The position numbers were made by a program. Shown in pieces: positions 21,001 through 24,000 of a stretch of DNA of 64,000 nucleotides (its first letter is position 1; every line of letters begins with the position of its first letter). This DNA comes from an uncultured Methanoregulaceae archaeon (GTDB lineage: Archaea > Halobacteriota > Methanomicrobia > Methanomicrobiales > Methanospirillaceae), in contig OY969564.1 of the NCBI GenBank assembly GCA_963701095.1, positions 64,001-128,000 on the forward strand, read 5' to 3'.

Positions 21001-24000
21001 GGCTCTCCCTCAAACGGGGCAATGTCGGGGATATTGATCTCGACGCGGTGTTCAGCGAGCTCCACAACATTTTCCCATGGGATGATAAGACTGGGATTCC
21101 CAAATGATCGGGTGACATAAAGCGATTTTACTTCCGGTACTCGTGCGGTCTCCACAATAATGAGATCACTGAGCGTGCCGGTTTTTTTCCCCCTTAGCAT
21201 GACAGGTATGCCGAGAATCTGACTGAGGAAGATCTCCCGATCTGTGGTTTTTGCAACACCTGCGGGCACTTCATTTTGTGTCATGCCATGCTCCCTCCCG
21301 TAACAATAGTATAGAATTTGTAGGCAAGAAGTATTACTAAAAAGATCAGATAAATACGGAGCATGAGGAGGGCAAATTTAACGCCGGGAGACATGGTGAT
21401 CCGGGGGTGTTCATATTTCTTATTAATCGCTGATATTGCAGCCATCCCGTTTGAAAAGACCGCTTTCACCGGTTCTATTATACCGTTTTTTAAGGTAAAT
21501 GCCATGATTACACCATCTCCTCACCCGAACAAATTCGGGAACAACGTACTTATGCCATACAGTGACGATACGACAATAATACAGGTGACAATCGATATAT
21601 TCGCTATATTATCAAAGAGTGTATTTTTGTATTTCCCCATGATTTCCTCGTTGTTGAGGAGAATGATCAAAAAGACCAGTGCAGCCGGTAATAGGGTTAC
21701 TGCCACGACCTGGACAAAGAGTGTAATTAACACCAGGGGTGCCCCTGGGATAAGGACAACGGCTCCGGCAGTAATGAGTCCTACAAAATAGAATACATAG
21801 AACCAGATGGCTTCTTTTACCTTATAGTTCAGGGAATGCGCCCACCCGAACACCTCGCCGAACGCCCATGAACTGGTGAGTGCAATACAGAGAGCTCCCA
21901 AGAATCCAGCATCAAACAGGCCGATGGCAAGGAACGTTCCCACCCAGGGATTCGTAGCCATCATAATCTGTGCTGCCTGCGCGGCACTTTGGATGTCCAT
22001 ACCCTTCAGAAGCGTCCCGGTCACGACAATAATAAAGACCGCAACGAGAACTGTAAATACCGCTCCAATAGCAGTATCGAATTTTCCCCAAGGAATGTCT
22101 TTTTCCTTCATCTGCTTATCAACAACAGCACTCTGCTGGAAGAAGATCATCCAGGGCGCGATGGTCGTCCCGATATTTGCCATCAGGAAAAAGAACAGCT
22201 CGCCATTAAAACCTCCCGGGAAATTGGGAATGACACCGTTACGGAAGATATCGGAAACCGAAGGATGGACAAGAATAGCTGCAGGTATGTAGATGAGGTT
22301 GACAAGGCAGAGTGCCATCGTGATCTTTTCCCATGTCCAGTACTTCCCGGAAAAAACTATTCCCATCATTACACAGATTACAATAATGACGGTGAGTAAG
22401 GGGGGGATACCGAATATAGAAAGTCCGGCTGTCATGCCGATAAATTCTGTCACCAGTGTAAGCCAGTTCACCAGACTTAAGTCTAGGAAAGAGAACCAGC
22501 CCCAGAATGAGCCGAAAGCGCTGAAAATTGCCTCTGCATGCCCATGCTTGGTAACAGCACCAAGCCGGACGGTCATCTCTTGGACAAAATACGCAACTGG
22601 TCCCAGAAGGATCAAAAACCAGATAAGATTATAACCAAATTTTGCCCCGGTAGCTGCATAAGTAGTGATACCCCCGGCATCATTGTCTGCAATCATTACG
22701 ATAAGACCGGGACCGGCCAGCAACAGGTATATCTGGATGGTCTTGATTATTCTCCGGTAATTAAAATAGAATTTTGCCAAAAAATCCATTTTTCACCTAC
22801 GAATCAATTTTGTCATTCAGTGCATTGTACTGATCATCCCCCCATTCGATCCGAATGGCAGTCGGAGAGCACGGGTAAGATACCCGTCTCCTCATGACAT
22901 AATCGTGGACGCCGGGCTCATATAATAATATCGCCTCAGTCGGCCTTTTTTTTGCTTTCTGGGTATTTCATGGTCATGAATTTTTATCATTGGCGCAATT
23001 CAGCCGTTTTTAATCGAATAAAATCCAAATCGGGCAGTTTAAAACAAAGACCATCCCGGAGAATATAATCTTTTTTTGGATCCGGCGCATGTTTATTGAA
23101 CCATAATAAGGTAAAACAAGTAAAGTAATACTGTATTAGCCAAAAAGACCCTTCTGGAGAAAAGACAGAGGGTTCTTTGTTGAGGTGCGCCAGATGCTTG
23201 AAATCAGGTTTGTACGGGCGAGCCCGGAGATCGTAAAAGCCGATCTGCTCAAACGAAACGCTCAGGAAAAGATTGCATGGGTAGACGAAATTCTTGCAAA
23301 AGATGCACGTTCCCGCGAGCTTAAAGTACAGACCGATGAACTGCGGCGCCGGAGAAATACCATCGCCCGGGAAATCAACGAACTTCGTAAAGCCGGAAAA
23401 GATCCGGCTTCCCTGATGAAGGAAGCAACAGAACTTCCGGGGAAAATTAAGGAAAACGATGCCGAACAGGATGAAATAACAACCGTTATTCGCACCCGGC
23501 TTATGCGTCTGCCTAATATCCTTGACGACAGCGTACCGCGAGGGTGTGATGATACCGGGAATGTGGAGGTCCGGCGTGTCGGCACACCGCGTACGTTTGA
23601 TTTCGAAGTCAAAAACCACGGCCAGCTTGCGGCTGAACGGGGCTGGGCTGATTTCGAACGGGCTGCGAAGATTTCAGGGGGAGGATTCTATTTCCTGAAA
23701 GGAAATCTTGTCCTTCTCGATCTTGCCCTCCAGCGTTTTGCCCTAGACCTGCTTGAAAAGAAAGGTTTTACCCCGGTCATACCGCCGTTTATGATCAACC
23801 GCAGCTCGTACGAAGGAGTCACCGATCTTGACGATTTCGAAAAAGTGATGTACAAGATCGACAACGATGATATGTACCTGATTGCGACAAGTGAACACCC
23901 TATAGCCGCAATGTACCAAGATGAGATCTTCGAAGAAAAGGACCTTCCTCTGCGCCTTGCCGGGTTATCCCCCTGTTTCCGGCGGGAAATCGGTGCGCAT

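Follow-up and report, generated by a model that had tools for sequence, protein, structure and literature searches.

Genes and operon

The window analysed here, a stretch of 64,000 nucleotides, carries a minus-strand operon in which an Nramp transporter gene is followed by the ORF of a 74-aa membrane protein and then by a MgtE_N/CBS gene (Table 1). The gene serS is divergent from the operon and begins at 23185. Among solved structures, the transporter was observed to match 7QIA at an E-value of 9.9e-61 and MntH at only 9e-13, and the DAGG and GTTIAPW motifs are present in its alignment to 7QIA. The binding-site signature of NRMT (Mg-clade) proteins, as described in PMC8806188, was also found: Gly replaces Asn in helix 1, helix 6 contains Thr and Ala (not Met), and Trp replaces His. 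By its sequence, the gene product is an NRMT-type (Mg-clade) protein, and Mg2+ transport is predicted for it.

The MgtE_N/CBS protein is encoded downstream in 79 of 80 loci (the best 80 of 264 by protein), and the nearest named relatives are Methanoregula and Methanoregulaceae records. NrmT genes paired with an MgtE fragment and frequently controlled by an M-box are described in PMC4072509. The same paper reports that one NrmT without a riboswitch acted as a Mn transporter, and for this reason the signal of the leader may not be Mg2+. The Nramp gene is present in 71 of 228 family genomes and 74 of 401 class genomes. Together with 31 more loci from family genomes, the 80 loci gave 75 usable Methanomicrobiales leaders including that of the window (L038 was left out as it has no upstream DNA), and the 30 of these 75 that share the window's core are referred to as family A.

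Table 1. Features of the operon and its leader, in the order of transcription
Feature	Position	Strand	Evidence or remark
TATA-like box	22918..22925	-	Sequence; transcription start probably near 22895-22900
Leader (folded region)	22787-22905	-	Between TATA-like box and Nramp start
Hairpin P1	22864..22891	-	MFE fold; sequence and length variable
Hairpin P2	22839..22861	-	G-run paired with, and masked by, the pyrimidine tract; apical length varies; dominant in 53 of 56 leaders
Upstream SD-like site	22832..22843	-	G-run and second stretch able to pair with 16S tail; predicted duplex -15.7 kcal/mol
Optional 6-codon in-frame extension	22817..22837	-	From ATG 1 nt after G-run; most of the window's clade
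Minimal ORF (ATG-CAC-TGA)	22817..22825	-	13 nt after G-run, 36 nt before Nramp start
Nramp SD (AGGTGA)	22793..22798	-	Sequence; duplex -8.5 kcal/mol
NRMT-type Nramp transporter, 422 aa	21521..22789	-	PF01566; closest solved relative 7QIA
Small ORF, 74 aa (37 aa from internal ATG)	21281..21505	-	Sequence; C-terminal half hydrophobic; ATGA overlap with next gene
Soluble MgtE_N + CBS protein, 426 aa	20004..21284	-	PF03448, PF00571

Distribution and conservation of the leader

A TATA-like box similar to that of the window was found 130-156 nt before the start in 55 related leaders. The leader is more stable than shuffled sequence (z -3.3), with one of 200 shuffles being equally good. A covariance model of 56 leaders, built largely from the same loci that it then recovered, matched 31 of 108 genus genomes with one copy each, and a second copy was not found by this model in the window's own genome. 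Thirty of these matches (E ≤ 1.7e-6) lie directly before the Nramp gene, and one weak match (E 0.004, genome G163) does not. A gapped pattern of the core gave 23 matches in 185,579 genomes, all of them before the Nramp gene. In metagenomes the same pattern gave 35 matches, including one duplicate and six shared with the genome set, of which 34 precede the Nramp gene while the contig ends at the 35th. The first-pass annotation had described a conserved leader between a TATA-like box and the Nramp start with no Rfam match. The model and pattern matches bear this out and agree in kind with its earlier counts of 13 of 22 loci and 20 hits, and Rfam gave no match at E ≤ 10.

Within family A, four-fold sites have a mean pairwise identity of 0.45. 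The value is 0.53 for the 5'/P1 part, 0.86-0.99 for the core and 0.63 for the spacer; it reaches 0.99 at the ATG of the minimal ORF and falls to 0.45 after its stop. As about half of the compared sequences were recruited by the core pattern, the core values are inflated and those of the minimal ORF are not. From these comparisons, the leader is a conserved, gene-specific cis-regulatory element of the Nramp gene. In three runs, RNA contigs of a relative that is about 90% identical extend from the Nramp gene as far as 22874-22877, and in a fourth run they reach 22838. No RNA contig of this relative spans 22903-23146, and such contigs cannot give start site, strand or level. By joining leader to gene in four runs, short of the promoter, they provide a weak hint. 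A family-A leader with an Nramp start was also noticed on a contig labelled Acidimicrobiaceae (L217), which is probably a mis-binned methanogen contig.

Hairpins of the leader

P2 is the dominant hairpin of the 56 non-redundant leaders and its opening cost has a median of about 7 kcal/mol. Our alignments show that 94% of its cells are paired. The 3' strand is frozen and the 5' strand changes only compatibly, such that all changes are one-sided and none of the 14 pairs has a two-sided change, in a test of low power given the close kinship of the sequences and the constrained 3' strand. One-sided changes would be expected if the 3' strand is an SD. RNAalifold retained only a 7-pair P2 from the 56 leaders, without a compensatory pair. 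Length changes in the apical part of P2 occur by paired insertions, in keeping with an RNA hairpin rather than a DNA operator. Hairpin P1 varies: 81-85% of its cells are paired and two-sided changes occur in five of nine pairs, in an imperfect alignment.

The first-pass annotation had proposed a metal-sensing riboswitch with a four-helix fold and two exclusive folds around the pyrimidine tract. We observed the multi-helix fold to be confined to the window's subclade. An alternative pairing of the tract with a 5' partner was seen in 31 of 56 nascent transcripts; with the G-run held open, 24 of the 56 leaders formed it. Overall, 77% of the cells of this pairing are paired, and in the fold test of these leaders it was absent from the window itself. 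The second fold is a feature of only part of the leaders. These models portray a structured leader, for which a two-state aptamer is a conjecture.

A riboswitch of a new class, in which binding of Mg2+ or Mn2+ would switch the pyrimidine tract between its 5' partner and the G-run and possibly gate the minimal ORF, would account for a core that is far better conserved than four-fold sites (partly an effect of core-based recruitment), for the 5' pairing where it forms, and for the purine-purine mismatch and internal loop that P2 retains. The leader also occupies the position that the M-box has in orthologs. However, the 5' pairing is missing from the window and about 25 of the 56 sequences, P2 is without two-sided covariation, and opening of the Nramp RBS shifts by only about 0.9 kcal/mol on average between the two states. 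Furthermore, no aptamer-like core is common to the sister clades described below, although these retain the SD and the start-stop ORF. We consider a riboswitch of this kind unlikely. What stands of the earlier proposal is a conserved gene-specific leader, and the M-box of orthologs elsewhere makes its control by a metal (Mg2+) plausible; the ligand-driven switch between folds is not supported.

A minimal start-stop ORF

Downstream of P2 lies a conserved minimal ORF, which had been missed earlier. The form ATG-NNC-stop was found in 29 of 30 family-A genome loci, the exception being L017, in which the minimal ORF is lost and the upstream AUG continues in frame into Nramp. All 35 metagenome matches carry ATG-NNC-stop 8 nt past the pattern, which ended before the minimal ORF. 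The ORF starts 13 nt after the G-run (12 nt in a few family-A sequences), and the sequence of this spacer drifts yet its length is constant.

Over 53 sequences, the stop was observed to be TGA in 35, TAA in 15 and TAG in three, and never TGG. Parsimony on a tree of the first 140 codons (L017 and L024 were left out and L128 has no coding sequence) gave 14 changes at the second stop position, all between G and A, three changes at the third position, each yielding TAG, and none at the first position. Four-fold sites underwent a median of 11 changes, and transversions formed 702 of 930 purine-involving differences. As read from these sequences, the pattern is a stop-codon signature. Pairing of the stop with the 5' end of the transcript does not explain it, because the position is unpaired in 33 of 55 leaders. 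As in a minimal uORF, a stop comes no later than the second codon after the conserved AUG and is only ever exchanged for another stop codon. We consider it probable that this ORF is a ribosome signal at all.

The identity of the middle codon is variable, with CAC in 24 sequences, AAC in 22, GAC in four, GGC in two and ACC in one. Its third base is invariably C, and the ACA ahead of the AUG is 94% conserved. Neither is required by the stop-codon model, nor does the model account for the strong conservation of the pyrimidine tract. The 6-codon extension is out of frame in L024 and missing from the sister clades, and is probably incidental. Two other readings of this region were rejected. The frame of a longer leader peptide through P2 is broken in several indel variants (by eye). 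The other was an internal TATA box giving rise to a leaderless Nramp mRNA: the element keeps a fixed distance from the G-run but stands anywhere between 25 and 41 nt from the Nramp start, and in the window's clade its motif does not resemble TATA.

The invariant C and the conserved ACA could also mark a protein site, namely a C/D-box-like kink-turn for L7Ae, a site for another RNA-binding protein or a DNA operator. A C/D-box kink-turn is formed by tandem G-A/A-G pairs flanked by two stems. The window contains GGGAUGA and CUGA, similar to boxes C and D, as well as a perfect inverted repeat of 7 bp, and the NRMT leader of a different genus has an apparent kink-turn (by eye). In 18 of 53 sequences, however, the D-like word reads CUAA or CUAG, and the alignment, read by eye, shows no C-stem that would close this word. 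The distance between the repeat arms varies by more than 10 nt and changes of the G-U type are tolerated, which does not suit an operator. A protein site appears highly improbable on this evidence.

An over-spaced Shine-Dalgarno-like site

The 16S 3' end of the window's own genome has the usual anti-SD. The predicted duplex of the upstream SD-like site in the window belongs to the top 1% of 2587 called genes, and the medians of -11.5 kcal/mol for family A and -11.1 kcal/mol for the sister clades belong to about the top tenth. The G-run is an outright GGAGG in the family-A leaders L011, L015 and L128 and in most sister leaders. The upstream site is predicted to be stronger than the Nramp SD in 28 of 29 window-clade loci and in 19 of 29 sister-clade loci. 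The main SD is unremarkable in strength, its median being -6.9 kcal/mol against a genome median of -6.8. The SD-like run is predicted to be masked by a hairpin (P > 0.5) in 25 of 29 family-A leaders and in 18 of 29 leaders of the sister clades.

Among 505 genes of the own genome with an unambiguous start, GGRGG occurs 3-12 nt before the AUG, with 38 of 50 cases at 7-10 nt and none at 13-20 nt. Since this is the normal spacing, the upstream site is strong but over-spaced, and a split duplex brings the effective spacer down only to about 11-14 nt. The site may therefore not be used at all, as GGRGG never occurs at 13-20 nt in these genes. Spacing of the SD is said to affect archaeal initiation (PMC7531240).

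The AUG of the minimal ORF lies 25-41 nt from the Nramp start, and at most 36 nt from it in 54 of 58 leaders. A ribosome covers about 15-18 nt beyond the P-site codon, so that a ribosome on the minimal ORF would reach the region that the 30S subunit needs at the main start. The gap from the stop to the Nramp start is 17-35 nt (27 nt in the window), and neither an overlap nor a very short gap, as termination-reinitiation coupling would require, was found here. Such a gap is too long for termination-reinitiation because in Haloferax this is almost abolished by about 20 nt (PMC10666635).

This bears on a mechanism of opposite sign, in which the minimal ORF would deliver ribosomes to the Nramp start and Mg2+ would stop the delivery by stabilising the hairpin over the upstream SD. 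Such delivery would agree with the predicted strength of the upstream SD over the main SD in the window's clade, with the in-frame continuation of the upstream AUG in L017 and with uORFs that run into the Nramp start through an ATGA or TGATG overlap in L056, L059, L060, L076, L021 and L022. It is at odds with the gap, which exceeds the Haloferax range, and with a main SD that is as strong as that of an ordinary gene. We regard this direction as quite unlikely for the window's leader. In four loci of a neighbouring family (L056, L059, L060 and L076), a 10-codon uORF is found 29 nt before the Nramp start with its stop overlapping that start (ATGA), which suggests positive coupling in those loci.

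The layout in sister clades

The same layout was observed in 29 further Methanomicrobiales loci whose hairpins are unrelated to those of the window. AUG-UAA is present in 24 of these, and in 28 the AUG is 12-16 nt from an SD-like run. Most of the sister loci form a separate Nramp clade of about 75% identity, in a quick tree of 108 rows from which four short rows were left out. The sister clades share no hairpin sequence, and they retain the SD-like run, the spacer length and the start-stop ORF. The covariance model recovered none of their leaders. The AUG is retained and the stop has moved in L021, L022, L069, L026 and L101. L013 combines a window-clade Nramp protein with a sister-clade (AUG-UAA) leader, suggesting a swap of leader or gene.

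A strict test, requiring the minimal ORF and an SD-like run with a spacer of 12-16 nt, was positive in 29 of 30 window-clade loci and 23 of 29 sister-clade loci, and in none of the 16 other Methanomicrobiales loci (which have different leaders), the 36 non-Methanomicrobiales NRMT loci or the 37 mgtA/mgtE loci (30 of 108 mgtA-like matches, six mgtE loci and the own mgtA); as the groups were defined by inspecting leaders and the loci are kin, forming essentially two clades, these counts are descriptive and not a statistical test. In the own genome, the background was two of 1334 genes with at least 100 nt of intergenic DNA (crude gene calls), one being this Nramp gene. A sister-leader pattern gave eight matches, each in a methanogen record and, going by titles and coordinates, at a known Nramp locus, and another gave three methanogen matches together with four bacterial ones that look like chance.

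Retention of the start-stop ORF in clades without a common hairpin sequence argues against taking a riboswitch as the best reading of this leader. It suggests instead, from sequence comparison, that a parked ribosome rather than a classic riboswitch controls the Nramp gene.

Proposed mechanism

We propose, with about even confidence, that the leader is a ribosome-operated translational attenuator, in which Mg-dependent parking on the minimal ORF would occlude the Nramp RBS. The leaders contain a strong, hidden SD-like site, a fixed spacer of 12-16 nt, an AUG-(one codon)-stop and a distance of 25-41 nt to Nramp; from this arrangement we infer occupancy, occlusion, ligand and direction. Ribosomes would load on the marginal upstream site and would sit or cycle on the minimal ORF, and the footprint of such a parked ribosome would extend to the Nramp RBS and block it. 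A weaker part of the model is that loading through the hairpin at a stretched spacing would require ample Mg2+. At high Mg2+ the upstream site would be occupied and the importer off, while at low Mg2+ the upstream site would be closed and the Nramp operon translated. The leader would then do the job of the M-box for orthologs in other lineages. The cost of opening P2 counts against this attenuator. Its link to Mg2+ is drawn by analogy, from the NRMT signature, the MgtE_N partner and the M-box before orthologs.

A start-stop that only caps the expression of a membrane transporter, sensing nothing, would be simpler, and start-stop elements can repress without a ligand (PMC13338717). A hairpin-hidden SD at marginal spacing would, however, be elaborate for a fixed setting, and orthologs have an Mg-responsive element at the same place. 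We consider such a constitutive dampener very unlikely.

The Mg2+-dependent attenuator can be stated more broadly, with some reserve, as a possible way in which Methanoregula-type archaea sense cytoplasmic Mg2+ with the ribosome: a hairpin-gated, over-spaced SD and a peptide-free start-stop ORF may form an ion-dependent ribosome trap that replaces the M-box. Under this model, 40 nt comprising an SD, a stretched spacer and a start-stop would report Mg2+ by the kinetics of initiation and termination alone, without an aptamer and without a peptide. If true, the trap would parallel, in a prokaryote, the AUG-stop by which plants sense a nutrient and, within the reach of our literature search, would be the first signal-responsive uORF attenuator in archaea. 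Few cis-acting translational controls are known in archaea. Neither this leader nor any archaeal metal sensor of the start-stop or uORF type turned up in our literature search, which did not extend to most subscription papers or to the supplementary motif lists of RNA-discovery papers, where the leader could be reported. A caution also follows for conserved leaders that are called riboswitch candidates, as they can owe their conservation to ribosome signals.

Comparison with known leaders

The proposed attenuator would work like the bacterial Mg uORFs, RBS occlusion and the plant AUG-stop while being a member of none. In corL/corA, uORF translation is inverse to corA expression (PMC11552253), and a uORF controls the Mg2+ transporter gene in mgtQ/mgtB (PMC8092293), with mgtL/mgtA mentioned in PMC11552253/PMC8092293; all three resemble the leader of the window in placing a short ORF in a structured leader ahead of a Mg2+ transporter gene, and in each the ribosome probably acts as the sensor. 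The bacterial leaders are described there as having peptides with functional codons (Asp/Glu in mgtQ) and alternative hairpins or Rho, whereas the leader of the window has zero or one free codon and a conserved long SD spacer and stop. The host of this leader is an archaeon, and archaea are not known to have Rho. Conserved acidic or proline codons of the mgtQ/mgtL type were not found in the minimal ORF, and sister clades have no middle codon.

In the plant NIP5;1 gene, as told in PMC13338717, boron-dependent stalling occurs on an AUG-stop; as in the window, a nutrient transporter has a minimal start-stop ORF in its leader. NIP5;1 depends on cap-dependent scanning and its stalling leads to mRNA decay, whereas the minimal ORF of the window would be SD-led and hairpin-gated and is near enough to overlap the main RBS, with Mg2+ as the probable ligand by analogy. 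In Sinorhizobium meliloti, closely spaced upstream RBSs with suboptimal spacing act by occlusion, with mutually exclusive occupancy (PMC13285730). The window resembles these in having an upstream SD at suboptimal spacing close to the main RBS. The S. meliloti spacing is too short (<4 nt), and its uORFs are long and overlapping with no known signal. The window instead has an overlong spacing and a minimal ORF, in a layout kept across clades.

The M-box (ykoK, RF00380) before nrmT regulates the same gene family and operon (PMC4072509), and an M-box that gates a uORF is known in Mycobacterium (PMC12810186). No M-box was detected in the leader of the window at E ≤ 10, whereas orthologs elsewhere scored 118-143 bits. 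Among the orthologs scanned, an M-box precedes nine of 29 outside Methanomicrobiales and none of 18 within; by group, it precedes three of 20 bacterial orthologs, all Chloroflexi, and six of seven of Methanomassiliicoccales. Full-length M-boxes before Methanomassiliicoccales NRMT genes are located at L033:2170-2349, L040:2167-2347, L042:2146-2326, L046:2156-2338, L048:2032-2213 and L049:2096-2277, and our literature search found no paper on an M-box at this place in these archaea.

Other upstream elements of Mg2+ transporter genes

By eye, the upstream region of the own corA gene has no element similar to the Nramp leader. Together with the single copy in the own genome and the absence of the element from the 37 mgtA/mgtE loci, this gave no sign of a regulon. 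An M-box with a score far above the others precedes mgtA in a genome of the window's genus (L161:1133-1309), possibly acquired from bacteria with the gene. The mgtA-like P-type ATPase genes at G000:C1:309773-312079 (-), L164, L171, L183, L187, L189 and L190 have a common short promoter-like upstream motif without the minimal-ORF element. A different conserved NRMT leader was noticed about 100 nt before the Nramp start in L055, L088, L089, L093-L095, L098, L099 and L105. This leader has a 6-codon ORF near the transcript start and further ORFs of 3-4 codons. By eye, it also contains an apparent kink-turn with a 3-nt bulge, tandem G-A pairs and two stems, which is a possible L7Ae site.
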